IMG/VR virus record: IMGVR_UViG_3300037882_002640
Coordinates: 1-64,000 of that record
Length of the DNA stretch: 64,000 nucleotides
Source: a virus
Strand: one strand, 5' to 3'
Numbering within the stretch: the first letter of the stretch is position 1; every line of letters starts with the position of its first letter. Of the stretch, positions 1-16,700 are shown in pieces. The notes below the pieces were generated by a model. It saw only the letters and a list, made by a program, of their open reading frames with translations, searched no databases and was not told the DNA's origin. The translations under genes and the position numbers were made by a program.

Positions 1-21
1 ACTCTTAAAACTCTTATACTA

Positions 22-3000
22 ATGATAAAGTATTTTAAAATATTTATTTTTTTACTGTTTCCTATATTAGCCCAGTCGCAAGCAACTGTTTTAAGTTCTT
101 TTGGCGGTTATGGTGATATAGGAACTGTTACTGGTACCGGGCCTGTATTTACGATTACTGTAACGGGTTTCGTAGGTTCTCCTAGATTCCAAGCAGATGG
201 CCCTTATGCAGCCTTTGACGTATCTATAGGGGATGTTTTGTGGGCAGATTGTGCAAGATTCGTAGTTATGGGTATTTCTGCTCCTACGTTGTCAAGTGTA
301 ATTTTGACTGTAGAAGTACCTGCAAATGATTGGGCTTTAGGGGTTGGTGTTCCTTTTAATGGAACAAGGTGTGCTCTTGTACACGAAGAAATAGGTTTAC
401 TACCTGCTCTTCCCTCTCCTGCTGATGGTAATGCTGGTTCTTTGTCTGGTATAGATGTGAACCTCTATGCTTGTATGCAAAACCACTACAATCAGTCTTT
501 GTTAACTTCGATAAATAGTCTTAACGAAATTGTTGATTACACAGGTATCAAAGACGTTATTCCTGCGGTTGCTGCAAGCACTACTACCGGACAAACTTGG
601 AGAAATTCTGTTGGTCAATTATATTATTCTGATGGTGTTTCTTGGATGTCTGATTCAGATGTAAGATACTCTACTACTTCTTTACAAGGAGTTACAGCAG
701 GACTTTACAAAATAGGGATTGATACTGTTGGTGTTGATACTATGTACATTAATAATAACGGTACATTCCGTCGTTTTGAAGCGGGGGGTAGTGTGAGCCA
801 ATCTTGTTTGGATACTATTACGATTACAGGCATAACCCCAACCCCCGTTCTAGGCACTGCAATGGTACGAAACGGAACGGTGTGGGATAACATCTCAGGG
901 TACGTTCAATCAACTGCACCTGATGGTATGATTAGTTCCATACTAAGTCCTACTCAAGCAATAGTGCAATATTGCGGCTCGTTCTCAACTACTTTAGCAA
1001 CTGGGGCTTATTACGCAGATTCCATCTCTCTTACAGGCTCCACACAAACTCCACCTACCTCTGGTTTCGTAAGGCCACTTGGCCACGTTGCTGGCGGGCA
1101 GTTTATTGTATCTTCCCTCGGAACAGTCTTCTCAGCAGGAGGTTCTTCTGGTGGTGGTTCTACTACGGTTTTGGATGGCACTACACTGGATTTCACCCTG
1201 ACCGGACAACAACTTACTGGTGAGGTAAAGGTGCAGACGCTTGATTCTACGCACATAAAAGTAGGAGGAATAGAGTTAGAAGGATTGAGTCAGGATGGTG
1301 CTGCGATAGGGCAAATTCTTCGGTGGAACGGTACTGCTTGGGTTCCCGATACTGACTTGGCAAGGGAACAAAAGTACCGACTTCAATCTACTGCGCCTGA
1401 CACTACCTACACTTGGATAGACCAAAGTACTGCCGTATCAAACGTTGCAGATGTAAAAGATTATGTATTAGGCGAATGGGAGACAATTGGTTACTTTGAT
1501 ATTACTTCAAAAGCGTATTCAAACACACCTCCATTATACGTTCTTTCTTCGGGACAAAGCAATGCAACAAGTCGAGACGGCGGTGGGAATATAAGTACAA
1601 ATCCACTAAGCACGGTTTTTAATTATTTTACAAATTCATGGGAAATAGCAAGTCCGGGCAATGCTGTCTTTAAACCCCAACCCAATTGCTTTCCTTGTAA
1701 CAACTACGTTACCAATTTTGCAAAAGCGGCGAATGTTGATGGCCGAATTGTTAAAATAGTATCGTATTCCTTTGGAAACCAAAGCATTGGTCAATGGGCT
1801 GACCCGCCTCCGTCCCCTATGGGGGATAGTCTTTTGCTGGTGCTTAATAATTCCGGGATACCACGAGTTGACGTATTCCTATGGTTCCAAGGTGAAAGCG
1901 ACCACTTAATACCTCCTGCTGCATACCCCCCTCTTTTTCAAAACGTATTGGATAGGTTGGCGACTACAGGTAAATTTAATAAGCGCAGAACACCTGTGCT
2001 GATTGCCGAAATTCCCGGTGTAAACAACGCTATGAACGAAGCGTTCAACTTTCTTGCGAACGATACAATGTCTAACATTAGGGTTGTTCAAACAAGAGAT
2101 TTACCGTTGATTGACACAGACCACCTATCAGGTACAGGGTTAGAAGAGTTAGGAAAACGATTCTATGATGTTTTTGACAATGGATTAAAAACGAATGAAG
2201 ATATTTGGTCTTATCAATCCGACTTCAAGGCATACAATACACTAAAACGAAATATTGGCATTGGGGGAGAGGCTATAACCGGAGTAAAATTAAACGTTAT
2301 AGGTAGGGAAATAACAGTAGGTACAGATTTAGTAACAGCAAACGCTGATGTCTCAACGCTTTTAGACGGAACCAAAAACGGTTATTTCACAATGCACCCG
2401 TATTTATCTACGGCACAGCGAGTAATGGCTATTGGAGGCTTTATTGGCAGCAATAATAGTGAAATTGCTTTTGGTGGAGGTTCATCTGGTCATCAACCTG
2501 CTCAAAACGTATCTTTTTGGACAGGAGCATTCGGGACTTCTGGGGGCACTCCAAAAATGAACGTTGACCCATCAGGTTACGTGTGGGTACGAGAAAGGTT
2601 AGGTATCAATACTTTTTCTGGAACAGAAAGACTCACAGTCGATGGCAACGTAGATATAAGAGGCACAGCATCTCCTTATTTGCTATTAAAAAATGCTTTT
2701 CTACAGGCAGACGTTGACCAGTTTGCAAACAACGCTGGTGGAGATTATTACACCCTTAGAACACCCGTAGGGAAGGGAATATCTCTTTTTGTGGCGGGTT
2801 CTCCTGCTGCGGGAGTGGTTGTTGCCCCTAACTCTAATGTGGGCATTAATAGAAATGTGCCACTTAACACACTTCACGTTGGGAATCCCGCTGTTATAGG
2901 AACATCGGGCGTTAGGCATTCAGTTGCCAATTGGTTTTCAACAGGAATAAATGCGGATGGCGATGGTGTAGAAAGAGACGCGGTATATTTTCAAAGTAAC

Positions 3001-3273
3001 CTTTCCGTTGCGGGTGACATAACGGGAACGCTTTCTAATGCTCAAATTGCGCAACAAGGCGCGACAACAGGTCAGGCCCTTACTTGGAACGGTACTGATT
3101 GGGTTCCTACTACATTAGAAACTGTTCCAGCAAGTATTCCAGCAAATACATTTACAGGTAGCACATCAAGTGCTGCTATTGCTAATGCTGTTCTGGCTGG
3201 TAAAGTCGCTGGCGATAAAATATGGTGGAACATGGGCGCGGGTAATGGCATATCACTCTTAATTGTAAATTAA
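22..3273 (+). CDS. Tail spike/fibre-like protein with SGNH (CE6/SASA-type) acetylesterase domain and N-terminal signal peptide
   Basis: 1083 aa; SGNH blocks SSGQSNA, FLWFQGESD, DTDHL; fibre-type motifs GQILRWNGTAWVP and GQALTWNGTDWVP; repeated NVGI/IGI beta segments; N-terminus MIKYFKIFIFLLFPILAQS-Q. Confidence 0.7.
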   Translation: MIKYFKIFIFLLFPILAQSQATVLSSFGGYGDIGTVTGTGPVFTITVTGFVGSPRFQADGPYAAFDVSIGDVLWADCARFVVMGISAPTLSSVILTVEVPANDWALGVGVPFNGTRCALVHEEIGLLPALPSPADGNAGSLSGIDVNLYACMQNHYNQSLLTSINSLNEIVDYTGIKDVIPAVAASTTTGQTWRNSVGQLYYSDGVSWMSDSDVRYSTTSLQGVTAGLYKIGIDTVGVDTMYINNNGTFRRFEAGGSVSQSCLDTITITGITPTPVLGTAMVRNGTVWDNISGYVQSTAPDGMISSILSPTQAIVQYCGSFSTTLATGAYYADSISLTGSTQTPPTSGFVRPLGHVAGGQFIVSSLGTVFSAGGSSGGGSTTVLDGTTLDFTLTGQQLTGEVKVQTLDSTHIKVGGIELEGLSQDGAAIGQILRWNGTAWVPDTDLAREQKYRLQSTAPDTTYTWIDQSTAVSNVADVKDYVLGEWETIGYFDITSKAYSNTPPLYVLSSGQSNATSRDGGGNISTNPLSTVFNYFTNSWEIASPGNAVFKPQPNCFPCNNYVTNFAKAANVDGRIVKIVSYSFGNQSIGQWADPPPSPMGDSLLLVLNNSGIPRVDVFLWFQGESDHLIPPAAYPPLFQNVLDRLATTGKFNKRRTPVLIAEIPGVNNAMNEAFNFLANDTMSNIRVVQTRDLPLIDTDHLSGTGLEELGKRFYDVFDNGLKTNEDIWSYQSDFKAYNTLKRNIGIGGEAITGVKLNVIGREITVGTDLVTANADVSTLLDGTKNGYFTMHPYLSTAQRVMAIGGFIGSNNSEIAFGGGSSGHQPAQNVSFWTGAFGTSGGTPKMNVDPSGYVWVRERLGINTFSGTERLTVDGNVDIRGTASPYLLLKNAFLQADVDQFANNAGGDYYTLRTPVGKGISLFVAGSPAAGVVVAPNSNVGINRNVPLNTLHVGNPAVIGTSGVRHSVANWFSTGINADGDGVERDAVYFQSNLSVAGDITGTLSNAQIAQQGATTGQALTWNGTDWVPTTLETVPASIPANTFTGSTSSAAIANAVLAGKVAGDKIWWNMGAGNGISLLIVN

Positions 3274-3279
3274 AAAAAC

Positions 3280-5847
3280 ATGAAACATAAAAAGTATATA
3301 ATTTTATTTATGCTACTTCCTTTTATTTCTTTTTCACAAGGGAAAGGAGCAATTACTACAAACACTGAACCTACTGCTAATCAGGTATTAATATACAATG
3401 GTACAGAGTGGGTTCCCAAATATACAGATACGTTAACTGTTGTTTCGGATGGGCAATCTAATTCAGTTGGGCAAGGCGTTCCGTCTGGCTCGTTTACATT
3501 TAAAGCAAACTTAAAAGTTTGGAACAATACTGCATGGGTAGCACCAGTGCTTGGGCAAGCACCATTTAACCCGAGCGGTGCTAATAATGCTGCCTTGCAA
3601 TTTTGCGAAAAACTTGCACGAGAAAACCCTACAACCTTAGTTCGTCTTATTCAGACGGGCAATAGTGGTCAGCCAATTTCATATTGGATTAATGCACCTC
3701 AAACGGGATACACCACTACAAATTCTGCTGTTCTTGCTGCTCTTGGAGCAACTGGCAAGGTAGATGTACTGGTATGGATTCAGGGGGAATCGGACTACCT
3801 CCGAACTCCAGCCCAATACACAACGGATTTTTACACCTTACGAAGTTTGTGGATTAGTGCTGGCTGGCTCACACCTGCCACTAAACACTTGCTTGGTGGC
3901 TTATATATAGGTTCAGGGAGTACTTTAGGCTTCCAAGACGCCACCCTACGCGCAATAGGATTAGATAGTATTGTACAAACAGGTTATGCAAATCCGTTTG
4001 GGTTAACAACTTATGATAATCTACATTGGGATTCGCCTTCTCTTACAAAGTACGGTCAGGAGGTTTTGTATAATGCCTACCGAGCAACCCCCCACCCATA
4101 TACAAGTGGTACTTCTGGGATAGAAGGTACGATTAGCAACAATGTACTCGCAAAAGGTACTACTACAAACGGAATACAAAATAGTCGCCTCACAGACGTA
4201 TCAACACTGTTGACAATATCAGACCCGTTGACAAATACACTCCATATTGTTTCTGATGCTGCACCAACACAAGGACAAGGTAATGCAAAAATAAAGTTTT
4301 CTCAGCGTTGGGCTTCATCAATTGCTGCGGGTGGGGATGACTTTGGTACTGGTGAAATGCGTATGGTAAAGTCCACTGTCGTAAACAATGGCGGTACAGA
4401 CTTTGAGTTTTGGACAAGTGGATTCGGCGCTGGAGGATTAGCCAAGCGCGGTGCATTTACTTATGATGGTGCTGTTGATGCTGTTGCTGGCTTTCGTCAA
4501 GGAGGAACAGCCGCAAATGGTACTGTGCTTATTGGTGATGGCTCCGTATTTAAAGGACTTACTCCAACTGTTACACAAATTAATGCGTGGGGAGGAGTGT
4601 CAAGAGATAACTTGGGCGTTGACAATGGTGTATTACTAAAAAGCCCAACCGTTGTCAACGGAGCAACAACAGATACAACTCTTACTATGATACCGGGGGT
4701 TTTACCTTTATTACGAATGAGGGGGGGTATCGGCACTGGGCAAGGCCCAGTAATACAGATGTTCAAAGGCGGAAACTTGGCAATGGCGTTTGGGGTGAAA
4801 AGTGCATTTGATAATAGTAATAGTAATAACGGGGTGATTAATATCACAAACGGAGATTTTGATTTTTTGGGGCCAGCAGGTGACATGGTTACAGTAACAG
4901 CCGACAAAAATTTAATAATTCATGGTCAGGCTGGTGCAGGTGTTCATCTTGCTACTTTAAATACCAATGGCAAACTTGAAAGAAGCACAATTGACCCTGC
5001 AAATCTTGCAGTAAATCTTGACCAAGCCTACAACAACTTTGGGGCAACTGCCTCTAAGGTCGTAGTAGATGCGGCAGAAGGTCAAACAGGAGGATTAACA
5101 TTTGACCATTTTGGAGCCAATAATTACACTATTAATCTTAAAGGAACTGGTGATTTCCAAATCCGTGACTCAATCAACGCAACTACTAACCTTGCTGTGC
5201 TTAGGGTCTTCGACAACGGCTATACCTCAATAGGTACCCAACCACCCACTACCGACCAGAGACTATTAGTTACAGAGAACGGCACAGGATTAAAAGCCCC
5301 TGTGAGAATAACTAACGCAACAGAACCAGTAGACGGCGATGGTGTGTTTTTTCCTATGGGTGTTGGGTCTCAAGATAAGTTTGAAATCTCTACCTACAAC
5401 CCAGTGGGTGCAGTTGAAGAGGAAACTACAATTAGTTCTTACACGGGAAGTACTAAAATTCCTTCCTTAATACTTACCCCTGCAATTGCAGAAACCAGAT
5501 TCGAGAATGCTGTGGCTTACGAAGTCTTTAACGCAACTGCAACTACTGTTCAGTTAGACGGCAGAACATCTTATGTAGATGTTCCTTCTACAGGAACCAC
5601 TACTACAATGACGCTTCCTGAAATCGTTGCTGGGTTACCCGGAACAAATCAAGTGAGAGTAGGGTATGTCCTTCACTTAAGCGTAGAGAGGGCTGTTGCT
5701 GTCACAATTTCAAGATTTGGCAGTGATGATTTGATTTATGTAGATGGTGTTGCAGGCTCATCTACTTCAATTTCAACTACTGGTGGAACTTTCTTCGCAA
5801 AAAAGATTGTAGCCATCAGTGCTAACAAATGGGCAATATATCAATAA
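3280..5847 (+). CDS. Second tail spike/fibre-like protein with SGNH acetylesterase domain and signal peptide
   Basis: 855 aa; SDGQSNS, LVWIQGESD, DNLHWD; QVLIYNGTEWVP motif; N-terminus MKHKKYIILFMLLPFISFS-Q. Confidence 0.7.
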   Translation: MKHKKYIILFMLLPFISFSQGKGAITTNTEPTANQVLIYNGTEWVPKYTDTLTVVSDGQSNSVGQGVPSGSFTFKANLKVWNNTAWVAPVLGQAPFNPSGANNAALQFCEKLARENPTTLVRLIQTGNSGQPISYWINAPQTGYTTTNSAVLAALGATGKVDVLVWIQGESDYLRTPAQYTTDFYTLRSLWISAGWLTPATKHLLGGLYIGSGSTLGFQDATLRAIGLDSIVQTGYANPFGLTTYDNLHWDSPSLTKYGQEVLYNAYRATPHPYTSGTSGIEGTISNNVLAKGTTTNGIQNSRLTDVSTLLTISDPLTNTLHIVSDAAPTQGQGNAKIKFSQRWASSIAAGGDDFGTGEMRMVKSTVVNNGGTDFEFWTSGFGAGGLAKRGAFTYDGAVDAVAGFRQGGTAANGTVLIGDGSVFKGLTPTVTQINAWGGVSRDNLGVDNGVLLKSPTVVNGATTDTTLTMIPGVLPLLRMRGGIGTGQGPVIQMFKGGNLAMAFGVKSAFDNSNSNNGVINITNGDFDFLGPAGDMVTVTADKNLIIHGQAGAGVHLATLNTNGKLERSTIDPANLAVNLDQAYNNFGATASKVVVDAAEGQTGGLTFDHFGANNYTINLKGTGDFQIRDSINATTNLAVLRVFDNGYTSIGTQPPTTDQRLLVTENGTGLKAPVRITNATEPVDGDGVFFPMGVGSQDKFEISTYNPVGAVEEETTISSYTGSTKIPSLILTPAIAETRFENAVAYEVFNATATTVQLDGRTSYVDVPSTGTTTTMTLPEIVAGLPGTNQVRVGYVLHLSVERAVAVTISRFGSDDLIYVDGVAGSSTSISTTGGTFFAKKIVAISANKWAIYQ

Positions 5848-7616
5848 TGAAACACTTAACTTTAATGTTTTTAGTTTTGGGGAGTAACTTGTATGGACAG
5901 GTTACTTTCCCCATTACGCCTGAAAATAGTATCTTACCTGTATCCTACCAACCCCCTCCTACAACATCTGCATCACAATGCGTAATGTGGGACGGAGATT
6001 CTTGGGAGTACACAGATTGGGATACTCACGGGCCTACCTTGTTCACCTCTTGGGGGTTGAATAACTTTGACGGTACTTGGGCTTCCTTGACTGGAAAACC
6101 AAGCACTTTCACCCCTTCTGTTCATAACCATACTATTGCAGAAATTACAGGACTCCAAAATGCTATTGATGCAAAGCAAGCCACTTTGGTAAGCGGAACA
6201 AATATTAAGACTGTAAACGGAATTACCTTACTTGGAGCAGGAGATATTACAGTTGGCGGAAGTGTTGCTTGGGGTTCTGTTACAGGAACTTTGAGCAGTC
6301 AGACTGATTTACAAAATGCGCTAAATGCTAAACAAGCAACCCTTGTTAGCGGTACAAACATCAGGACAATAGAAGGCCAAACTTTACTTGGTTCGACTAA
6401 TATTGATTTGGGTGCAAGTGATGTCGGTTTAGGTAATGTTACAAATGAAAGTAAAACAACGATGTTTGCCAGCCCAACTTTTACAGGTACGGTGTCTGGT
6501 GTCACTGCAGCCCATGTCGGTTTAGGGAATGTCAATAACACCTCTGACTTAAATAAACCAGTTAGTATAGCAACTCAAACTGCTTTAGATACTAAACACC
6601 CAGACATTACCTTTCAAGAAGAAGGTGTAGGATTGGGCAGTGCTGGCACGGCCACTACTGTAAACTTTACAGGGGCAGGTACAGCATCTTTTGCAGGAAA
6701 TACCCTTACTGTCAATATTCCGGCTGCTGGTTTAGGTGATGCTGTGATTGCAAACGGTCTTCAACAGTTTACAGGAACTACAAATGCAAATTTTGTAAAT
6801 CAAACCACCGTGCCTACAACCCCATCAAGTGGTAATGTTAGACTATACTCACAAGATGATATCGGAAAAATAAGATTCGTAGATGCAAATGGGCGAGTTA
6901 ATAGGTTAGAAGAGCACAGTGGGTTTTCCAACCAACGTCTCTGGTTGCCTAGTTCTGGTACTGGTGTTTCGGCAATAGGTTCAGCACCTACTAACTCTGG
7001 TACGGTATCTAATCCTACTTTGGCCACAACGTCTTTGAAAACCTCCTTAGACAGATTTACGGTAACTTCTGCCACAACAGCAGGGGCATTGGCTTATAAC
7101 AGGTCTGCTAAGTTGGAAGTTTTCAGAGGCAACGCAGCAGGCAGGGGAGGTTTCAATATGGTTGCCACTTTTAGCCTCTCCACTCTTCAGACAGGAAATA
7201 GATTTTTCGTAGGATTAAGCAGCACTGCTAACGTCAACCCCACAAATATAGACCCACTCACGAGTACAGCAGGAAGTAAGGTGGGGTTGGCCTTTAATCT
7301 CTCTACGGGAAATTTACAACTTGTTAATAACGTCAATCTAACCGCACCTACTGTACTAGATTTAGGGGCAAGTTTTCCGGTTAACAACACTAACGTTTAC
7401 AGACTTCAATTGTTCGCAGAGCCAAACGGTTCTTCGATTAATTACATAGTAGAAAACCTAACAACTCCCGCTACTGCGAGTGGTAGTTTGGCCACCAATA
7501 TTCCTGCAAATACAGATTTCCTTGGTAGGGTTATTTGGATGACAAACAACACAATTGCTGCATCTGTTGCCTATGACGTATCTAACTTCTTTTTAGAAAA
7601 TAAAATTTATCCGTAA
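5847..7616 (+). CDS. Tail fibre protein with phage tail repeats and signal peptide
   Basis: Start reassigned to ATG 5847 (TAATG overlap). Repeats HNHTIAEITGLQ, KQATLVSGTNI (x2), VGLGNVxN (x2), SDLNKPVSIATQTAL are typical of phage fibre shafts. Confidence 0.75.
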   Translation: MKHLTLMFLVLGSNLYGQVTFPITPENSILPVSYQPPPTTSASQCVMWDGDSWEYTDWDTHGPTLFTSWGLNNFDGTWASLTGKPSTFTPSVHNHTIAEITGLQNAIDAKQATLVSGTNIKTVNGITLLGAGDITVGGSVAWGSVTGTLSSQTDLQNALNAKQATLVSGTNIRTIEGQTLLGSTNIDLGASDVGLGNVTNESKTTMFASPTFTGTVSGVTAAHVGLGNVNNTSDLNKPVSIATQTALDTKHPDITFQEEGVGLGSAGTATTVNFTGAGTASFAGNTLTVNIPAAGLGDAVIANGLQQFTGTTNANFVNQTTVPTTPSSGNVRLYSQDDIGKIRFVDANGRVNRLEEHSGFSNQRLWLPSSGTGVSAIGSAPTNSGTVSNPTLATTSLKTSLDRFTVTSATTAGALAYNRSAKLEVFRGNAAGRGGFNMVATFSLSTLQTGNRFFVGLSSTANVNPTNIDPLTSTAGSKVGLAFNLSTGNLQLVNNVNLTAPTVLDLGASFPVNNTNVYRLQLFAEPNGSSINYIVENLTTPATASGSLATNIPANTDFLGRVIWMTNNTIAASVAYDVSNFFLENKIYP

Positions 7617-8887
7617 TGAATAAAATATTCTTTTTTACACTCTTACTGCTTTTTGCGGGAACTCTTAATGCTCAGGTAGTTTCTGTAGGTGGTGCAACTC
7701 CCAACGTAAGACCTGCTCTTACTATCCGGGCTACTCAATTTGCACAAGATACTTTTCTTGCTACTGAAAAAGCAGTGAGAACTTCGATAGATTTGTCTGC
7801 AACCCGTAACCTTAAGACTATTACTCAAGTTGCTCACGGCTTCACTGTAGGGCAGTGGTTGTATTTTGATGGTACGCAGTATGATTTAGCCTCTACATCT
7901 TCACTAACGACTTTGAATACTGTAGGAGTTGTTGAGCAAGTAATTGATGCTAATAACTTTGTGGTTGTTACAAGCGGTATCTCGACAATATTTACGGGAC
8001 TAACCCCAAACACTATTTACTATCTTGATGCAACAGCAGGGGCCATCACTTCTGCAAAACCTTCAAATAATATAAGAGTAGTTTTAACAAGCCTAAACAG
8101 TACAGACGGACTTGTTAACCAATACTCAACTGCGGATGATGCAACTACACAAGCCCTTACATCAGGTAGAGTAAATGCTTTATTAGATTTAGCATCTACT
8201 ACTCATATTAATACAGACCCCGGTACGAAAATCCCTTTTACGGGGACAGTTTATACAAATGGAATGACTACAAATGCTGGTAGTATCATTCCTAGCGTGA
8301 CGGGAAAGTACAGGGCAGATTGGCTTTGTATGGCAGCAAGTACTGAATTTTTAGCGGATGGTATATTCTTTGTTGTTCAAAATGGTGTAAGTGTAGGTCA
8401 AGTCTCATACAATATGAACGAAGCAAGTGCTGTAAATCAAAGTGCTGGTTTTATTGATGTTGACTTGGTGGCTAACCTACCTGTTAGTCTTCATTACAGA
8501 ACAAGGCATACAACCACTGATGGTATATCTTGGGATAGAGGTTCTTATTTTCAACTTACTCAACTTCCAACAACAGTAACTACGGTTTTGGATGGTACAA
8601 TACAGGCGTTAGACCAATCCTCAACAGGATACTTTGATATAGGTAATATGAGAATGCAATGGGGAACAGGAACTACAAATGGCATAAGTAATGTTACATT
8701 GCCAGCAGTCTTTGCTAATACCAATTACCGCGTAACAAGTTCTTTTGCTGGTAGTGGGTCGATTGTAGTAAATCCAACTGGTACAAAAACCACAGCAACA
8801 TTTCAAGTAAATTCATTTTTTGCACCTGATGGTGGGCCAAGTGGTTCTGTTAGTTTCAATTGGTTTGCTATTGGACAAAAACCTTAG
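7616..8887 (+). CDS. Tail fibre protein with gp53-like C-terminal tip domain and signal peptide
   Basis: C-terminal GYFDIGNMRMQWG...VTLPAVF...FNWFAIG matches the common gp53-like fibre tip; N-terminus MNKIFFFTLLLLFAGTLNA-Q. Confidence 0.7.
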   Translation: MNKIFFFTLLLLFAGTLNAQVVSVGGATPNVRPALTIRATQFAQDTFLATEKAVRTSIDLSATRNLKTITQVAHGFTVGQWLYFDGTQYDLASTSSLTTLNTVGVVEQVIDANNFVVVTSGISTIFTGLTPNTIYYLDATAGAITSAKPSNNIRVVLTSLNSTDGLVNQYSTADDATTQALTSGRVNALLDLASTTHINTDPGTKIPFTGTVYTNGMTTNAGSIIPSVTGKYRADWLCMAASTEFLADGIFFVVQNGVSVGQVSYNMNEASAVNQSAGFIDVDLVANLPVSLHYRTRHTTTDGISWDRGSYFQLTQLPTTVTTVLDGTIQALDQSSTGYFDIGNMRMQWGTGTTNGISNVTLPAVFANTNYRVTSSFAGSGSIVVNPTGTKTTATFQVNSFFAPDGGPSGSVSFNWFAIGQKP

Positions 8888-8891
8888 TAAA

Positions 8892-9092
8892 ATGAAAACA
8901 ATGATTTACAGTACAATTAGCCTCGCATTTATATCCACTATGGGTGGTTTGTGGAGTACTTTAATAAGTATTACTGGAGGTGTATTGTTTTTATTAGTAC
9001 AGCTTACCACCCTCAAAGAAAAAATAAATACTAACCATGAGGGCAGTTTGTCTAAATGGATTAAATCGGTATTTTTTAAATGGAAAAAATAA
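8892..9092 (+). CDS. Small membrane protein, holin-like
   Basis: Start reassigned to ATG 8892; 66 aa, long hydrophobic stretch and basic C-terminus; lies between fibres and the endolysin. Confidence 0.45.
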   Translation: MKTMIYSTISLAFISTMGGLWSTLISITGGVLFLLVQLTTLKEKINTNHEGSLSKWIKSVFFKWKK

Positions 9093-9367
9093 TAACTATA
9101 TTATCTGTATTTGCTATCGGGTACAACACAATGCAATTTTCAAAGGTATTGTTTAAAAGTAAAGTTAAATATGATTATCCTAACGTTTTTGTAACAACAA
9201 AAATAGTTCTAAGTTCTTTACTTGTGTGTTACTTGCAAGTACTATACTCCACACTCTTTGAAAACTATATTCCGACACCAGGGCAAACAAGCGCTAATTT
9301 CTTAGTTGCTTCATTGCTTACGTTAGGAAATTTTATACATAAAAACTACATATTAAATAGGGAATAA
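9080..9367 (+). CDS. Small multi-TM membrane protein (holin candidate)
   Basis: 95 aa with three hydrophobic segments. Confidence 0.45.
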   Translation: MEKIITILSVFAIGYNTMQFSKVLFKSKVKYDYPNVFVTTKIVLSSLLVCYLQVLYSTLFENYIPTPGQTSANFLVASLLTLGNFIHKNYILNRE

Positions 9368-9825
9368 TGAGATATTTAATTCTTTTATTGCTTGGGCTCG
9401 TAGCTACTATTTGCGGGGCTCAAGACACCATTACAGTAAGCGACATACCGTCTCTAAGTCTTAAAGAGACTTTAGGAATTGATAGTCATAGTTTACCTGC
9501 AGTGTTGGTTGCTAATATATTAATAATTATAGGGTTTTACTCTCCTATACTTTACAACTATGCTGTAGCTGGCAAAATAGAAAGTACTTTTCTGCAGAAG
9601 AAACAATTGATAGCTATGAATATACTCATGTCTATAGTAGCTACTACCCTAGTGCTAATTCCAAGTTTAGTTTCTTTGCTCAGTAGTGTCGGATTTACTT
9701 TTGATGTTGAGAACACCAAGCCAGCATTTGTTATACTAGGGGGTTCCTTATATTTGGCTAAGTTGAATCAAAAACTACTTAGCGATAAAACAATACAAGA
9801 TAATGACAACAGAATTAACCTGTAG
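9367..9825 (+). CDS. Membrane protein with signal peptide
   Basis: MRYLILLLLGLVATICGA-Q followed by 2-3 TM segments; TAATG coupling. Confidence 0.5.
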   Translation: MRYLILLLLGLVATICGAQDTITVSDIPSLSLKETLGIDSHSLPAVLVANILIIIGFYSPILYNYAVAGKIESTFLQKKQLIAMNILMSIVATTLVLIPSLVSLLSSVGFTFDVENTKPAFVILGGSLYLAKLNQKLLSDKTIQDNDNRINL

Positions 9826-10243
9826 TCAACTGACTATAACGTCCCCCAATCTTTTGGGGGACAATCAGTATACTAAAATAAATCTATATAAAGACTGCAG
9901 CACTACAGCAGTTACTTACACAGTTCTTCCACAACCAGTGGGCAGTATAGTTCTGAATACTGTAAACTTCTACCCTATAATGACATCTGGAATATATAAT
10001 GTAGAGTTAGTGGTTAAGAATTTAGCAGGCACAGTTATAAAAGAAAGTGACTGCAAGTTCTTAGACTGCACTTCTTTGGAGTGTGGGGTAGTTAAAGACT
10101 TAGATAACACTGATAAGCTAATTGCTTACTATGGTTTAAAAGCTAGTAACGAATGTGCTAACTGCAGTTGCGAAGATATGTGTAGAATTTATGCTAAACT
10201 AACTAACAATGAATGTACAGAATGCTGCGTGTGCACTAAGTAG
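9803..10243 (+). CDS. Cys-rich virion protein (possible crAss-type tail hub/fibre-attachment protein)
   Basis: 146 aa, SGIYNVEL beta motif, Cys-rich C-terminus; function inferred from position only. Confidence 0.4.
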   Translation: MTTELTCSQLTITSPNLLGDNQYTKINLYKDCSTTAVTYTVLPQPVGSIVLNTVNFYPIMTSGIYNVELVVKNLAGTVIKESDCKFLDCTSLECGVVKDLDNTDKLIAYYGLKASNECANCSCEDMCRIYAKLTNNECTECCVCTK

Positions 10244-11477
10244 ACTCTCTTTAAAGTATTTTAAAGATAAAACTTATATCATAGATGTCTGCTCAGATGA
10301 AGTCAAGAAAGCGTTAGGGTACTACCTAGCTAGCACTACTGAATGTGAATATGATTATTCTAAGGTAAAATGTTTTACTGAGGACTATAAACCATGCGTA
10401 AAAACGGAATCAATGACTTGCGAGGATCAGATTACTTTTGCATTAAGTAAAGTATCCACTCCCTGCAACTTTAGGGCAGATGTTGTTAATCCTTTAGATA
10501 ATTCTAAGTATGCTGAACTTACTTTAGTTAACAATCTAGTGTATCAAAATGCTACACTTAAGACTAACTTTATTAATAATTGTAAATTCAGCACTACATC
10601 CACTGTAAACAGTGGATGCTCATCCGTAACCTGTGTTCCCGAGTTTAATCCTTTCTTTGAAACCTCTGTAACCCTGCAGAATGTTTTAACAAACGCTAAT
10701 GGTTTCATAAAGGATATAAGACTGTTTAGAACCGAGAATAATGGTAGTAGCCCTTTAACTGCTATTAGTGTAGATATATCCCCAGCTAATTTTGCTAGTT
10801 GGAATTCCTGTGGTACATGTGTAAGCTTTTACACAGCTGCAGACTTACTATTTGGTAGTGTGAATTTTACAGCCGCTTTAACGGATATTTTGAATAATGT
10901 CGCAAAGACATTACTTGGAGGGAATTTCTCTGAGTTTACGGTTAAGAAATCCGGCAATGATGTTATCATATCTTCTAAGGTTAAACACAATCCTAATAGT
11001 TATTGGGTAGGTATAAACCCTGATTCCTGCTTTATCAGTTGGGTTAATAATGCTAGCGCTCAAACGAATATAGAGTTTGCTCCCCGCTCAACCCTTCTAA
11101 GAGTTGAGAATACTGCTTATGCTAGGATGTATAGTAGTTTATCTTATTATACTCCTTGCGGCAACTACAATTTCGCTGTAGATTTCCTCCCTTTATGGAG
11201 TGTGAATACATCAGCCACTAATATAAACTTCGCCAGTTTACTCTCTAGTAAATCAAATACTCCGTTCACCATCACATATCCGTTGTTACCTTGTTTAGCC
11301 ACTACGCTAAAAGCAACAGTAACTACTAATGGGGTGATAAATACTAGGGCGTGGAGAGATTCTAGTAATCTACTACTATCCTCAACTAACGAAGCTATTG
11401 TGTATTCCCCTGGAACATACACATTTACAGCCACAACTAATAATGGCTGCACACAATCAACAAGCGCAATAGTGTAA
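10209..11477 (+). CDS. Cys-rich putative structural protein with C-terminal Ig/PKD-like repeat
   Basis: 422 aa; ends GTYTFTATTNNGCTQS, resembling Bacteroidota Ig-like repeats. Confidence 0.45.
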   Translation: MNVQNAACALSRLSLKYFKDKTYIIDVCSDEVKKALGYYLASTTECEYDYSKVKCFTEDYKPCVKTESMTCEDQITFALSKVSTPCNFRADVVNPLDNSKYAELTLVNNLVYQNATLKTNFINNCKFSTTSTVNSGCSSVTCVPEFNPFFETSVTLQNVLTNANGFIKDIRLFRTENNGSSPLTAISVDISPANFASWNSCGTCVSFYTAADLLFGSVNFTAALTDILNNVAKTLLGGNFSEFTVKKSGNDVIISSKVKHNPNSYWVGINPDSCFISWVNNASAQTNIEFAPRSTLLRVENTAYARMYSSLSYYTPCGNYNFAVDFLPLWSVNTSATNINFASLLSSKSNTPFTITYPLLPCLATTLKATVTTNGVINTRAWRDSSNLLLSSTNEAIVYSPGTYTFTATTNNGCTQSTSAIV

Positions 11478-11917
11478 TGAAACTTAAACTAGTAAGAAAG
11501 ATATTTTTAGAAGACAGAGTTATCAGTAACCTATATATAGATGGAGTTCTATACTGCCAAGTATTAGAGGATACTGATAGAGGTCTAGACTCTAAAATGT
11601 CTTTAGATGAAATTAAGAAATTAAAGATATGGGGCAAGACTTGTATACCTTACGGTACATACGAAGTCATTATCTCATTCTCTAATAAATTCCAAAAGAT
11701 GCTTCCACTACTGGTTAACGTGCCAGGGTACTTAGGGATAAGAATACATTCAGGTGTGCTCCCTGAACACACAGAAGGCTGCTTACTTCCTGGTGTCTAT
11801 AACAACGGAGAATTCAAAAATTCCAGAATTATGACTACCAAGCTTATCTCCTTAGTAGAGAAAGCGAAAAAGCGAAGCAAAATCACCATTGAAATCACAA
11901 AAGAGGTAACCAGTTAA
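11477..11917 (+). CDS. DUF5675 family putative endolysin (L,D-peptidase-like)
   Basis: CIPYGTYEV...SNKF...LPLLVNVPG..GIRIHSG....TEGCLLPG signature of DUF5675. Confidence 0.85.
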   Translation: MKLKLVRKIFLEDRVISNLYIDGVLYCQVLEDTDRGLDSKMSLDEIKKLKIWGKTCIPYGTYEVIISFSNKFQKMLPLLVNVPGYLGIRIHSGVLPEHTEGCLLPGVYNNGEFKNSRIMTTKLISLVEKAKKRSKITIEITKEVTS

Positions 11918-11932
11918 TGGTTACCTTTTTTT
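11904..11932 (+). terminator. Rho-independent terminator after the lysis cassette
   Basis: Stem AGGTAACCA / loop GTTAA / TGGTTACCT followed by a T-run. Confidence 0.8.
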
Positions 11933-11968
11933 ATTTCTGTAAACTCAAATAACATAAGATATTTGTAT

Positions 11969-12643
11969 ATGAAAACAATAGAGCATGTTTACGCTATAAA
12001 AAATATTCTCTCTAAAGGAGAGGTTTCAGACGACTACTCCTACTCTAATAAATTAATACTTCACTTTTTAGAGGTATCCAGAGCTAGGCTAATCGAAGAA
12101 AAAGCAAATAAGTACCACCACATCTCAGAACAATCTTATTCATCACTTTGTATGGATTTAGAGAAAGGAACTTTTCACAACTGCTGTACTGGCCCTGATG
12201 ATAAGTGCTTATTGAAATCAGTAAAAGAAATACCAAAAACTATAAATACTAGGTTTGGAAACTTAACTAAGGTTACTGACCTAGCTGGTAATGTAATACC
12301 CATGGGGAGTATAACTACAGACTCTTTATCCCAATACTCCATAACAGCTAAGAATAGCACTGTATGGTTTATTCATGATAGTAAACTATACATCAAGAAT
12401 AATAACGATTTAGAGAAAGTGGTTGTAAATGGTCTTTTCCTTAATCCAGAAGATTCTCTGGAAGAATGTCCAGACTCGACAACTATTAACTGTCCTAGTT
12501 ACTTAGATACAGAGTTTCCAATAGATAGTGATTTAATTGACGCTATGTACCAACTCACCCTGCGCTACCTAACACTGCCAGTACAAAAAGATTTAATGAA
12601 TGACGCAAGAGAAAATATGGAAGGTGGTCAACCTCAAGGATAG
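11969..12643 (+). CDS. crAss-like tail ring protein
   Basis: SRARLI, LKSVKEIPKTI, WFIHDSKLYI, EFPIDSDLID pattern and synteny with IHF-like/Ttub/Tstab. Confidence 0.55.
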   Translation: MKTIEHVYAIKNILSKGEVSDDYSYSNKLILHFLEVSRARLIEEKANKYHHISEQSYSSLCMDLEKGTFHNCCTGPDDKCLLKSVKEIPKTINTRFGNLTKVTDLAGNVIPMGSITTDSLSQYSITAKNSTVWFIHDSKLYIKNNNDLEKVVVNGLFLNPEDSLEECPDSTTINCPSYLDTEFPIDSDLIDAMYQLTLRYLTLPVQKDLMNDARENMEGGQPQG

Positions 12644-13040
12644 TTATAAAGACTACAAGGAAGAAGTAGATTATAATACCTATAAGAAAGTTATATATGC
12701 TATGTATGATATCATGATGGACAATATGATGAACAAAGGAATAGTGTATAAATTACCACATAATATAGGTGTTATAGGATGTTTCCAAAGAACTACCTAT
12801 GGACGAGGAGTTATGGATTTTAAACTTCATAAAGAGACTGGAATAAAAAGATATATTAAGAATTATCATTCTGAAGAAAGAGTAATAGTATTTAATTTGG
12901 ATACTTCATACCACTCTGGTATAACTAACCAATTCCGTAAACTGTATAAGTTTACTGCCTCTCGCTCTAGAAAAAGACAACTCGCTAGCATTATTAAATC
13001 AAAAGTAGATATTTGCACCTACAACAATTTAGATGAGTAA
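12600..13040 (+). CDS. IHF/HU-like protein of the crAss structural block
   Basis: 146 aa, basic; YKLPHNIGVI, NYHS, YKFTASRSRKRQLA; directly upstream of the tail-tube gene. Confidence 0.55.
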   Translation: MTQEKIWKVVNLKDSYKDYKEEVDYNTYKKVIYAMYDIMMDNMMNKGIVYKLPHNIGVIGCFQRTTYGRGVMDFKLHKETGIKRYIKNYHSEERVIVFNLDTSYHSGITNQFRKLYKFTASRSRKRQLASIIKSKVDICTYNNLDE

Positions 13041-13731
13041 AACAAATTATATTTCAATAAAGTCAGTATTATTTGACTTAAGTACCTTATTAGAAGATAG
13101 GTACTATAACCAAGCTAAAATGCTTGAATGGGCAGTTAAAGGTTATCAGTCTTTGAAGTTAGAAGATAAGTTCATTAAGAAAGTATTTCACTCTAAAGTA
13201 GATAATCACAAAGTTCAGTTACCTATAGATTTGAAGTTCATACTAATGGTAGCTTTAAAAGATAAGGACAGGGTTAGAGCACTAGTTCCTGCTAGTACAC
13301 AACTAACTATGGAAAAGTGTTTACTTCCTAATACCTGCCATAATTGCAAAACTGACTACACTGTAGATCATAACTTAGTTCTAACCCTAAGTAGTAATGA
13401 AGGGGATGTCTATGTTGAATATTTAGCCTATCCTACAGAGGATGGAGAGTTCTTAATACCAGATCATGAAGATGTAAAGGAAGCTATCGTTAACTATATC
13501 TTATGGAAATACTGGCTATCTAAATCTTTAATGAAAGAACAAGGAGCAGACAATAAGACAGAGTATTTTAGAAACCTATATGTTATGTACTCCAACAAGG
13601 CTTTGTCCTTATCAATGCCTGATGTTGGGCAAATGGAGAACATTAAACGACAGTTTAATTCTTTAGTTCCTAAGGATGATTTCAGTAACCTGTTTGTAAC
13701 TTTAAATAACCAAGAAAATGGAAACAGCTAA
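13033..13731 (+). CDS. Tail tubular/ring protein (Ttub-like)
   Basis: YISIKSV, KVQLPIDL, GDVYVEYLAYPTEDGEFLIPD, EAIVNYI pattern; synteny. Confidence 0.65.
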   Translation: MSKTNYISIKSVLFDLSTLLEDRYYNQAKMLEWAVKGYQSLKLEDKFIKKVFHSKVDNHKVQLPIDLKFILMVALKDKDRVRALVPASTQLTMEKCLLPNTCHNCKTDYTVDHNLVLTLSSNEGDVYVEYLAYPTEDGEFLIPDHEDVKEAIVNYILWKYWLSKSLMKEQGADNKTEYFRNLYVMYSNKALSLSMPDVGQMENIKRQFNSLVPKDDFSNLFVTLNNQENGNS

Positions 13732-16700
13732 CTTACCTATAAAAGGTTTAAATACAGATGTCTTGGAAAAATTCCAAGAAGAAGGAACCTACAGGTTTGC
13801 TTTGAATGCGGTACTTGAAACAGAAGATGGGGATTTAAGGGGGATATCAAACGAGCATGGAACTACTCTTTGTAATACATCCTTTCCAGCAGGTAAGAAG
13901 GTGATTGGTCACGTATTAACTGATACTAGTGATATAGTATTATTTCTATTTGATCCAGCGACTGTACGACCAGCACATGAGATAGGAATACTCAATTCTG
14001 AATCCTGTGTTTACACAACCATTGCTAGGGGGGAGTGCTTAAACTTCAAAAGGGAAAATCAGATAAATGCTATATTCAGGATTAAAGACGGGTGCACTAG
14101 ATATGTTTACTTTACCGATAATTTAAATCCTTACAGAGTAGTTAATATCACTGATACTACTGATTGGGTTAATCAGACAACTAAGAATATTCTTAGCTGC
14201 GATAAAATTAAATTTACTCGTGATGCCCCACCCCCACAGATTACTGGCTATAACTTAAATGGTTACGATAGCGGTGTAGCTGACTTTGGTGGGGTACTGG
14301 AGTATGGAACTTATTCCTTCTCATTTAGATACCTAGATTATGATGGTAATCCAACTGATTGGATTCAACCCACTAGGTACTTCCCTGTAATGACTGGTCG
14401 CCGTAGCGATTTAGAGAATGACAGGACTGCCGCTTTCCACACAGGGGCTGTAAATGTGAGTACAGAAAATGGATATAGACCAGCATCTGGAAAGTCCATT
14501 GCTTTGAATATAAACAGATTAAGTACACAATTCTCCCACTATGAAATTGCAGTAATTAAAAGAGGAGCATCTTCTGGAGAGATTACTGCAGTTAACATCC
14601 TACCTAAGAAGCCTATCCTTAACCCAAGCAATCTATCTTTAGTATCAGATGTGTTTATCTACACTGGTGGAGAGTCTGTAGTATTATCTTCCTTAGAGGA
14701 GATTTTCTCAGAGACTGTTAAGTTGGATAGGGTGGTAGCACATACTCAAGCAGACAATAGATTATTAGTTGCTGGAGTAACTAATCCAGCAAGAGATTAT
14801 ACTGGATTCCAACGACATGCCTCCTCTATAGAAACAAGGTGGCTACACCAAGCACAGGATATCTTTATGGCTAATTCCAAGTCCGCTACTGGATACCAGC
14901 TTTTTAGTGGGTTAATGCATGATGAGGTATATGCTTTTGGAATTGTATACGTGTTTAAGGATGGCAGCACTTCCCCAGTATTCCATATCCCTGGCAGAAA
15001 GATTGACATTACTACCCCTTTACTAGCAGGCAATGTACACATAACCGATAATAACCCGTTAGACTCCTTCACCTTACCAAATACTGACCCTAACATATTT
15101 GATATTAATGTTGATAAGAGGTGGCAAGTGTATAACACTTACACCAAATTAAACAGTACTGCTACAGAAGGGTACATGGGGTACTACGAAAGTAGTGATA
15201 CCAATTACCCAACTAAAGTAATTCCTTGTGATACTAATCCCGATGGATACTGGGGTAGAGATTTTTCAGGTGATTTACTAACGGGTAAGATAAGGCATCA
15301 TAGAACCCCAACATACTCTCCAAAAACAAGTTTGGGTGGTAATTTTGTAGGAGAGCATGACATATGTGGTGTTAAATTTATAATGGATGAAGAGTATCCA
15401 CACTCAGATATTATTGGGCACTATTATGTTAATGGGGATAGAAGTTCAGGAGATAAAACTGTATTAGATGTAGGGGTGTTATCGAGGAGTTTGTTATCTC
15501 CAGATGAGGGATCCCCTACGCTCTTCCCTAATTCCACATTCTCAGACTTGGCAAGTATTATTAACGATAGCAGGTTTAATGGTGGAACTACTACAGAAAC
15601 TAAGGATCATTTTTTCCTATCTAATAAAACTCAGTATTTAGAGAAGATGGAAGAAGGTTCTTATTTAAGAGTATTAGATTTCATCATATCAAAAAATTTA
15701 ACTACTGTGGCCAATGCAAGCGCCCAGTTTTACCCTCCTAATAAAACTGTAGATTTAAATGTAGTTAGAGATTTTGAGCAGGACTGGTTTGCTCGTCCTT
15801 TAGCTAATTTCAACTATGATATTGAAGGCTCTGCTTACTTAGGAAGGAGTGTTAACTACTTAAATCGCACTAGTGTAGGTGGGGTGGGATTCTTTGAAGG
15901 TAATAGTGTAACAACTATAAACGAGGAGAATATGGTTAACCGCTCATCTTCTATAAATCTTGGGGTTGTCTCTTTAGATAGAGGGGTTGTAGGCCCAAAT
16001 ACTACTACGAACTGCTTAGCTAGAGTCGCTATAAAAAGCCATAGAAATGTATTCAATACTCTGGACAAGATTATATACAAAGCACTAGGAACTACCTATG
16101 CTATTAAAGCCCCAGGAGTTACTCTTAATACTTCAATCTATAGCGGGGATATAATAAACTCCCAACCTTACTTCTCAGAAAGTTTTATTGTTGAAAATAA
16201 TGCTAATACATTCTTCTCGGATTATAGTTTCCTAACTGTAATACTCGAATCAGACATCAATACTACAAGTAGATTAAACGATAGGGAGAACAACACATTT
16301 AAACACTTCACTGGTGGCTACACAATATTCGATGCTACTGCTGACTCGTTACTTTCCTATCTAAAAAGTAAGTTACAAACTAGTGGAGATGTCATTACAT
16401 ATGACTACGAAAGGCATTACTACTCTAAAGCATATGATTTTTTCCAGTCTGATAAACCTTACTTCCCATTAGATGAGGACTTTAATGTTTGTAATGAATG
16501 TTATGATGAGGAGTATCCTTACAGGATATACTACTCCCAGCAAGATACCTTAGAGAGTGGTAGGGATTACTATAGGACTATACTTCCCAATAACTATAAA
16601 GATTTAGATGGGTACATAGGGAAGATTACAGACTTATTCACATTCAAAAGTAAGTTGTTTGCTTTAACTACTAATTCATGTGTGATGCTTCCTTTCCGCC

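Follow-up and report, generated by a model that had tools for sequence, protein, structure and literature searches.

Glutamine-exposing Sec-type leaders on four consecutive tail-fibre-like proteins of a Bacteroidota phage suggest that its fibres may mature in the periplasm

The textbook assembly pathway of tailed phages is entirely cytoplasmic, and the esterase tailspikes of enterobacterial phages, such as gp63.1 of phage G7C, are not known to carry leaders and are assembled in the cytoplasm. Phage proteins that do use the general secretory (Sec) pathway of the host include signal-anchor-release (SAR) endolysins, spanins and superinfection-exclusion lipoproteins such as Llp of phage T5. In Bacteroidota, substrates of Sec and signal peptidase I (SPase I) follow the Q-rule: a tripartite leader with small residues at positions -3 and -1 is followed by Gln at +1 (Bochtler et al. 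2018, PMC5837995; PMC10653852). Five genes of unknown function that follow this rule were described in Porphyromonas gingivalis prophages and read as an adaptation to the secretion system of the host (Matrishin et al. 2023, PMC10367356), and the phage target proteins of diversity-generating retroelements have been stated to lack signal peptides (PMC6199706). Leaders followed by Gln are also carried by late proteins of two phages of Cellulophaga baltica, phi18:3 (NC_021794, Pachyviridae; gp085-087) and the siphovirus phi10:1 (NC_021802, Assiduviridae; gp091-094 plus gp095). The records list gp085-087 of phi18:3 as structural or tail proteins and gp091-094 of phi10:1 as structural, in each case 'based on experimental MS/MS proteomics analysis' (MS/MS, tandem mass spectrometry). 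Among gp091-094, which lie at the usual distal-tail/receptor-binding gene position, are a pectate lyase and a 'tail fiber protein'. In both phages genes for small membrane proteins and an endolysin come next, and the two records make no mention of leaders. Here we analyse four consecutive tail-fibre-like genes, referred to below as fibres 1 to 4, at the beginning of the first 64 kb (the window) of the 94,810-bp linear IMG/VR virus record IMGVR_UViG_3300037882_002640 (completeness estimate 95%), which derives from an uncultured short-tailed phage of Bacteroidota with a genome of approximately 95 kb. An earlier note on this DNA had proposed that these fibres carry Bacteroidota-type Sec signal peptides.

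All five N-termini quoted in that note are present in the sequence: with the arrow marking the predicted cleavage site, the leaders of the four fibre open reading frames (ORFs) end in AQS↓Q, SFS↓Q, LYG↓Q and LNA↓Q, and that of a further ORF, at 9367-9825, in CGA↓Q. Leaders were called by our own rule-based scan plus conservation among relatives, the criteria being a positive n-region, a hydrophobic core of about 7-15 residues and small uncharged residues at -3 and -1. Four fibres and the 152-amino-acid (aa) product of the fifth ORF have such leaders, with Gln at +1 in 5/5 proteins of the block. The fibre leaders each combine one to three basic residues with an uncharged hydrophobic core of 8-14 residues, small residues at -3 and -1 and Gln at +1, and their best 19-residue Kyte-Doolittle windows score 1.2-2.0; hydrophobic cores of this length fit cleavable leaders and are too short for stable membrane anchors. 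The fifth protein, which the earlier note had listed alongside the fibres, does have a leader and Gln but is not fibre-like; it is a protein of 152 aa with further membrane segments.

Among the 21 ORFs of at least 300 aa in the whole 94.8-kb genome the rule-based scan finds a leader in four, which are exactly the four neighbouring fibres; at random, a run of four adjacent leaders among 21 ordered ORFs is expected in 18 of 5985 arrangements, and the run on these four fibres is far beyond chance. A leader and Gln at +1 are combined in only eight ORFs genome-wide, five of them inside the block. The other three are small ORFs (96-109 aa) that lie beyond the window, at 73196-73516 (-), 74388-74678 (-) and 83191-83520 (+), so that the phage encodes at least eight Q-rule proteins. 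The four fibre leaders are dissimilar in sequence and are thus maintained independently of each other.

Leaders are retained among relatives of the fibres. A phmmer search with fibre 1 returned 344 relatives, and sharing of the N-terminal domain was judged in the best 150. This domain is common to 48 of the best 150, and a leader followed by Gln is present in 48/48, even though these proteins measure anywhere between 145 and 2846 aa and have different C-terminal parts; their alignments begin at their own residues 2-8. In a 43-sequence alignment Gln +1 belongs, together with core residues of the domain, to the columns with 90% conservation or more. More broadly, 111 of the 149 listed fibre 1 relatives have a leader, followed by Gln at +1 in 106 of the 111, and in one protein (P0024) the esterase stands behind a different, short N-terminal module with the leader still present. 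The only good relative of fibre 2 (P0022) is 93% identical to it over the first 42 residues, leader included, and 44% identical in the C-terminal third, with an unrelated middle part; fibre genes are commonly mosaic in this way, with a constant anchor module at the N-terminus and a variable body, and here the leader is part of the constant end. For fibre 3 a leader is found in only 20 of 109 generic fibre-repeat relatives, and the closest long relative (P0205, 82% coverage) has a leader followed by Gln. So does one relative of fibre 4 (P0001, 85% identity over 35% of the query), while more distant ones (P0002, P0009 and P0010) are leaderless. Taken together with the leaderless fibres of phage Fpv1 and of Cellulophaga phage phi17:2, these counts indicate that the leader is specifically selected for and does not simply follow from fibre composition, and its conservation, surviving domain shuffling, makes real export likely. 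The observation of the earlier note, that fibre- and esterase-type proteins carry Sec/SPase I-type Q-rule leaders, is confirmed, and its interpretation is supported in part.

Could the hydrophobic N-termini be something other than export signals? They might be uncleaved helices that serve assembly or tethering, or they might precede the true starts, with the proteins folding in the cytoplasm as the textbook route for tailed phages has it. The translational layout speaks against downstream starts, which the earlier note had allowed for: TAATG stop/start overlaps provide the start codons of fibres 3 and 4, that of fibre 2 lies 6 nucleotides (nt) past the fibre 1 stop and the fibre genes are translationally coupled, all of which supports the annotated starts. 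With initiation further downstream, this densely packed operon would contain stretches that are not translated. Uncleaved helices are hard to reconcile with cores too short for stable anchors, with a leader region that is conserved as protein (the 93% of P0022) and with the predominance of Gln at +1 among the leader-bearing listed relatives, which is expected only if SPase I exposes the residue (PMC5837995). We consider a cytoplasmic, non-signal role of these segments improbable.

We assign a similarly low likelihood to the possibility that the fibres are morons, i.e. captured Bacteroidota genes for cellular surface fibres whose leaders are relics and which have no role in the particle or in lysis. 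It is true that many relatives with Trp-Asn-Gly-Thr-x-Trp-type and fibre repeats look cellular and bear leaders, a Pedobacter 'beta strand repeat-containing protein' being one example, and that the cassette differs from the next 6 kb in G+C content (0.42-0.43 vs 0.34-0.36). Against this, the fibre 1 N-terminal domain was found only in phage-type contigs, with no cellular copy (0) in two pattern scans of 185,579 species genomes; four related phages have the cassette at this same place, and its translation is coupled to that of structural genes; and four independent, dissimilar leaders have all been maintained. A tblastn search of cultured phages with the same N-terminal domain gave no match, nor did a scan of IMG/VR and genomes with one of our alignments (A5).

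We conclude from the sequence features that the four fibres are very probably exported via Sec and mature in the periplasm, since Gln at +1 would have no reason to be under selection unless SPase I exposes this residue there (PMC5837995, PMC10653852). As to their further routing, no lipobox was seen, as all four fibres lack a Cys at the cleavage site or close to it, and none of the four matches a type A or type B C-terminal sorting domain of the type IX secretion system (T9SS) in NCBIfam/Pfam at E-values up to 0.1 and 0.01. The sorting domain was likewise detected in 0 of 23 long relatives, although a very divergent one could escape detection. Having neither a T9SS sorting domain nor a lipobox, the fibres alone would reach the periplasm and not the cell surface.

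What would be exported are, by homology, phage tail fibre and tailspike modules. The fibre repeats, gp53-like tip and esterase domains that the earlier note had named are indeed found in the bodies, as matches to tail-fibre PHROGs (fibre 3), Gp53-like_C (fibre 4) and SASA (fibres 1 and 2). The SASA family (PF03629; gathering cut-off 24.8 bits) scores 41.4 bits in fibre 1 and 34.5 bits in fibre 2, and both contain visible GQSN and DxxH motifs, whose Ser and Asp-x-x-His we take to be the catalytic motifs of SASA/SGNH esterases. When present in tailspikes, SASA/SGNH domains presumably de-O-acetylate the receptor. The fibre 2 esterase has approximately 31% identity with tail-fibre/tailspike genes from phages of Salmonella Typhi and from one phage of Mesorhizobium, and for the C-terminal part of fibre 3 the matches, at 33-39% identity, come from phages of Rhodobacter, Curvibacter and Microcystis. 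An AlphaFold2 model of fibre 1 (predicted local distance difference test score, pLDDT, 80.6) shows the N-terminal domain as a common beta-barrel, the best solved matches of which are phage baseplate and tail-tip proteins with Z-scores of at most 7.4, which is in the noise band. A Foldseek search of this domain against the Protein Data Bank (PDB) yielded no match at E-values up to 0.001, and the ESM Atlas yielded only weak viral clusters at 0.83 or lower.

A short sequence motif recurs in the fibres. The form (V/I)L-x-(W/Y)-N-G-T-x-W-V-P is encoded at 1315-1350 and 3076-3111 in fibre 1 and at 3385-3420, just past the leader of fibre 2, with looser copies near 630, 5980 and 7850 in fibres 1, 3 and 4; it was not found in approximately 10,000 residues of other late proteins. 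In several relatives, and in phi18:3 gp085, similar motifs come after the leader. The motif may be a docking or a repeat element.

The four fibre genes belong to the late structural operon of this tailed phage. By gene order and weak protein similarity the phage is related to the approximately 90-kb podophages Fpv1 and FpV4 (Fipvunavirus) of Flavobacterium psychrophilum, and it resembles Cellulophaga phages more distantly. The order common with Fipvunavirus runs from the head genes through a variable block to a phrog_9863 virion protein, a 1386-aa structural protein (approximately 28% identical to its Fipvunavirus counterpart), proteins of 623 and 661 aa, a giant protein and a 1454-aa protein. 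The giant protein is a single ORF of 5264 aa (21726-37520, +) in the late arm and is syntenic with Fpv1 gp33, a 'virion structural protein' of 4401 aa. The fibre cassette lies within the variable block, flanked by head genes on one side and conserved tail genes on the other, in a position syntenic with Fpv1 and with the related contigs L045 and L052. A megablast search with positions 1-12000 of the window found no close relative in cultured phages, and the fibre 1 and phrog_9863 proteins, each used as a single-protein locus query against IMG/VR, found no relatives. The G+C content is 42-43% in the fibre cassette (window positions 1-8000) vs 34-36% in the next 6 kb (8000-14000), which may reflect either the Gly/Ala/Thr-rich composition of the fibres or a different origin. 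At its 3' end the contig truncates a capsid-protein-like gene, and its 5' end lies 21 nt upstream of the fibre 1 ATG.

This 5' end retains the trace of another fibre. In frame 2 the window starts with ...LLKLLY*, which matches the ends ...LLKLLW* and ...NLKLIW* of two leaderless fibres of 591 and 476 aa (the asterisk denotes the stop) whose genes precede the fibre 1 homologues in the related contigs L046 and L045, respectively. The leaderless fibres have a common C-terminal domain of approximately 125 residues, and it is the end of this domain that matches the six codons at the start of the window. In L045 (from IMG/VR), homologues of Fpv1 head-proximal genes are followed by the leaderless 476-aa fibre and then by the leader-bearing fibre 1 homologue. 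The metagenomic contigs L046 and L047 have a leaderless fibre and then a leader-bearing fibre of at least 1394 aa, and in the 63-kb relative L052 the head genes are followed by a leaderless fibre of 761 aa, then by two fibres that bear a leader with Gln, and finally by small membrane proteins. Across the clade, then, one leaderless fibre comes first and exported fibres, varying in number, come after it.

A comparable layout was noticed in an unrelated 44-kb IMG/VR phage (L043). At 9830-16510 it encodes a 778-aa fibre/tailspike and a 600-aa beta-helix-like protein, both leader-bearing, directly past the head-tail connector genes, with a small protein with leader and Gln next. The leader of the 778-aa protein precedes an N-terminal fibre motif that normally stands at the very N-terminus.

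Downstream of the four fibres lie genes for three small membrane proteins, two cysteine-rich proteins and a DUF5675 protein, followed by a terminator-like hairpin (Table 1). DUF5675 has been grouped structurally with C82 peptidases as a candidate lysin domain (bioRxiv 10.64898/2026.04.11.717860), and the protein encoded here contains a His ... Thr-Glu-Gly-Cys motif that recalls YkuD/C82 peptidases; it may be the phage endolysin. As all these genes form one transcription unit, the exported fibres would be co-transcribed with likely lysis functions. For the cysteine-rich proteins no family match was found. Fpv1 gp20 and phi17:2 gp047/048, which are Cys-rich and have similar positions, were considered as homologues and dismissed for lack of BLASTP similarity.

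Table 1. The fibre block and neighbouring features; positions are nucleotides of the window unless given as residues
Feature	Position	Strand	Remarks
Leaderless fibre gene, last 6 codons and stop (20-22)	1-22	+	Rest lost at contig end; stop overlaps fibre 1 ATG (TAATG)
Fibre 1, 1083 aa	22-3273	+	Leader 22-78, AQS↓Q
Fibre 1, conserved N-terminal beta-barrel domain	Residues ~25-160	+	
Fibre 1, SASA esterase	Residues 509-716, nt 1546-2169	+	E 1.6e-10; GQSN and DxxH motifs
Fibre 1, C-terminal part		+	Fibre-like
Fibre 2, 855 aa	3280-5847	+	Leader 3280-3336, SFS↓Q
Fibre 2, N-proximal motif		+	Form xVLxYNGTxWVP
Fibre 2, SASA esterase	Residues 58-260, nt 3451-4059	+	E 2.1e-8; fibre-like C-terminal part beyond
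Fibre 3, 589 aa	5847-7616	+	Leader 5847-5897, LYG↓Q
Fibre 3, generic tail-fibre repeats	Residues 75-330	+	Tail-fibre PHROGs
Fibre 3, C-terminal domain		+	phrog_13925 match, E 2.5e-51
Fibre 4, 423 aa	7616-8887	+	Leader 7616-7672, LNA↓Q
Fibre 4, Gp53-like_C tip	Residues 347-420, nt 8654-8875	+	E 7.6e-6
Membrane protein, 66 aa	8892-9092	+	Hydrophobic segments, basic C-terminal tail; putatively holin-like
Membrane protein, 95 aa	9080-9367	+	No family assigned
Protein of 152 aa	9367-9825	+	Leader CGA↓Q plus further membrane segments; not fibre-like
Two leaderless cysteine-rich proteins	9803-11477	+	146 aa with 13 Cys; 422 aa with 16 Cys; ORFs overlap
DUF5675 protein, candidate C82-like cell-wall peptidase (lysin)	11477-11917	+	Pfam PF18925, E 1.7e-24
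Intrinsic-terminator-like hairpin	11899-11931	+	14 pairs, then T run; ends transcription unit

How might exported fibres serve a particle that is built in the cytoplasm? We propose that the cassette is a variable set for host recognition and receptor modification, made up of two O-acetyl-esterase fibres, one repeat fibre and one fibre with a gp53-like tip. Its products would be made late and sent through the Sec translocon of the host, SPase I would cleave each of them before Gln, and the exposed Gln would be cyclised to pyroglutamate by a host cyclase, as in exported proteins of Bacteroidota, before the fibres fold in the periplasm. The three holin-like membrane proteins and the candidate lysin are encoded in the same unit, so that fibre export and the breach of the envelope would be co-expressed. 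Once the inner membrane opens, cytoplasmic particles, probably already equipped with the leaderless upstream fibre, would meet the periplasmic fibres, which would dock through their conserved N-terminal modules. By analogy with phi18:3 and phi10:1 we see about an even chance that the fibres fold in the periplasm and dock via these modules onto particles when the envelope has been opened; joining of the virion, which the earlier note had placed at or after lysis, is made plausible, indirectly, by the MS/MS-based annotation of the leader-bearing proteins of the two Cellulophaga phages as structural. A complex prediction with three copies each of the C-terminal domain of the leaderless fibre and the N-terminal domain of the leader-bearing fibre scored 0.00, which speaks neither for nor against such docking. 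Taken as a whole, the proposal is that tailed Bacteroidota phages include an extracytoplasmic branch of assembly, in which Sec-exported, pyroglutamate-capped and periplasm-folded fibres or tailspikes dock when holin and lysin open the envelope, the leaderless fibre here being the dock for the four exported ones. We put the probability of this reading at roughly 0.45.

Several observations weigh against extracytoplasmic assembly. The premise of the earlier note that tail fibres normally fold and assemble in the cytoplasm holds for the nearest cultured relatives, since the fibres of Fpv1 and phi17:2 are leaderless; the export route is therefore not required by the virion design. The leaderless fibre encoded just upstream of the cassette may be the true receptor-binding fibre, or the only fibre of the virion. 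Detection by mass spectrometry in virion preparations of phi18:3 and phi10:1 could be due to co-purifying protein, and BLASTP comparison of the leader-bearing proteins of these phages with the four fibres found no similarity, so that the parallel is one of architecture and not of homology. The Bacteroidota O-glycosylation sequon D-(S/T)-(A/I/L/V/M/T) is not enriched in any of the four fibres, with none significant in 1000 shuffles (observed/expected counts of 8/4.5, 4/3.5, 0/2.2 and 0/2.3 in fibres 1 to 4), and disulfide formation was rejected as a general reason for export, fibres 2-4 having one cysteine each.

In the main competing reading, which follows the alternative given in the earlier note, the four leader-bearing proteins are exported without ever joining the virion and act instead as free receptor-modifying esterases and adhesins in the periplasm and, after lysis, on the cell surface; the leaderless protein would then be the sole virion fibre. 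Their leaders and the conservation of these would fit this equally well, particle assembly would need no crossing of compartments, a leaderless fibre precedes the cassette here as well as in L045, L046 and L052, two of the four proteins have esterase domains with intact catalytic motifs, and the cassette adjoins lysis-type genes. Such proteins might strip O-acetyl groups from nascent surface polysaccharide, block superinfection or keep progeny off debris. What makes a purely free-acting set the less likely reading is that the bodies are typical virion fibre modules (tail-fibre PHROGs, a gp53-like tip), that an N-terminal module which stays constant as the bodies are exchanged is the mark of a docking module, and that proteins with neither a T9SS domain nor a lipobox could not reach the surface of an intact cell. 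Furthermore, the analogous proteins of phi18:3 and phi10:1 are annotated as found in virions, those of phi10:1 at the distal-tail/receptor-binding position of a siphovirus.

Should docking of exported fibres hold true for many Bacteroidota phages, a late step of their assembly would cross compartments and be tied to lysis. Heterologous expression and engineering of such fibres and depolymerases would then have to keep or replace the leader, and pipelines for host-range prediction and annotation would err in this phylum where they take a signal peptide as a sign that a protein is not part of the virion. Cultured Cellulophaga phage-host pairs with the same architecture allow a direct test of periplasmic maturation.

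Our literature searches found no description of leaders on tail fibres, and in the literature searched such leaders appear undescribed; the known systems each share a part of what is seen here. SAR endolysins, spanins and Llp are likewise routed to the envelope by host signals, but these are small lysis or exclusion proteins, whereas the proteins of the present cassette are large receptor-binding fibre/tailspike modules. Published Q-rule substrates are cellular envelope or secreted proteins, in contrast to the tail-fibre-like proteins of a lytic tailed phage. The P. gingivalis prophage proteins have leaders that are likewise predicted to expose Gln, but belong to temperate phages and are discussed as modifiers of the host surface, not as fibres or tailspikes in a structural operon. 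Enterobacterial esterase tailspikes resemble fibre 2 in having a SASA/SGNH-type esterase within a fibre or tailspike (the Salmonella Typhi phage matches), and differ in their presumably cytoplasmic, leader-free assembly. Fpv1 and FpV4 are the closest cultured relatives at the level of the genome, yet the corresponding block of Fpv1 is without any leader. A parallel in architecture is provided by phi18:3 and phi10:1, which infect hosts of the same phylum and in which late genes for fibre, tail and pectate-lyase proteins with leader and Gln are consecutive, as here, although the phage families differ. Between these two phages, the N-termini of phi18:3 gp086 and gp087 are nearly identical, leaders included, to those of phi10:1 gp093 and gp094, which in a podovirus and a siphovirus points to the exchange of whole leader-bearing receptor-binding cassettes between morphotypes. 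Particular to the present locus are the absence of a glycosylation-sequon signal, two esterase fibres, a conserved leaderless partner fibre and a large N-terminal domain family that always comes with a leader.

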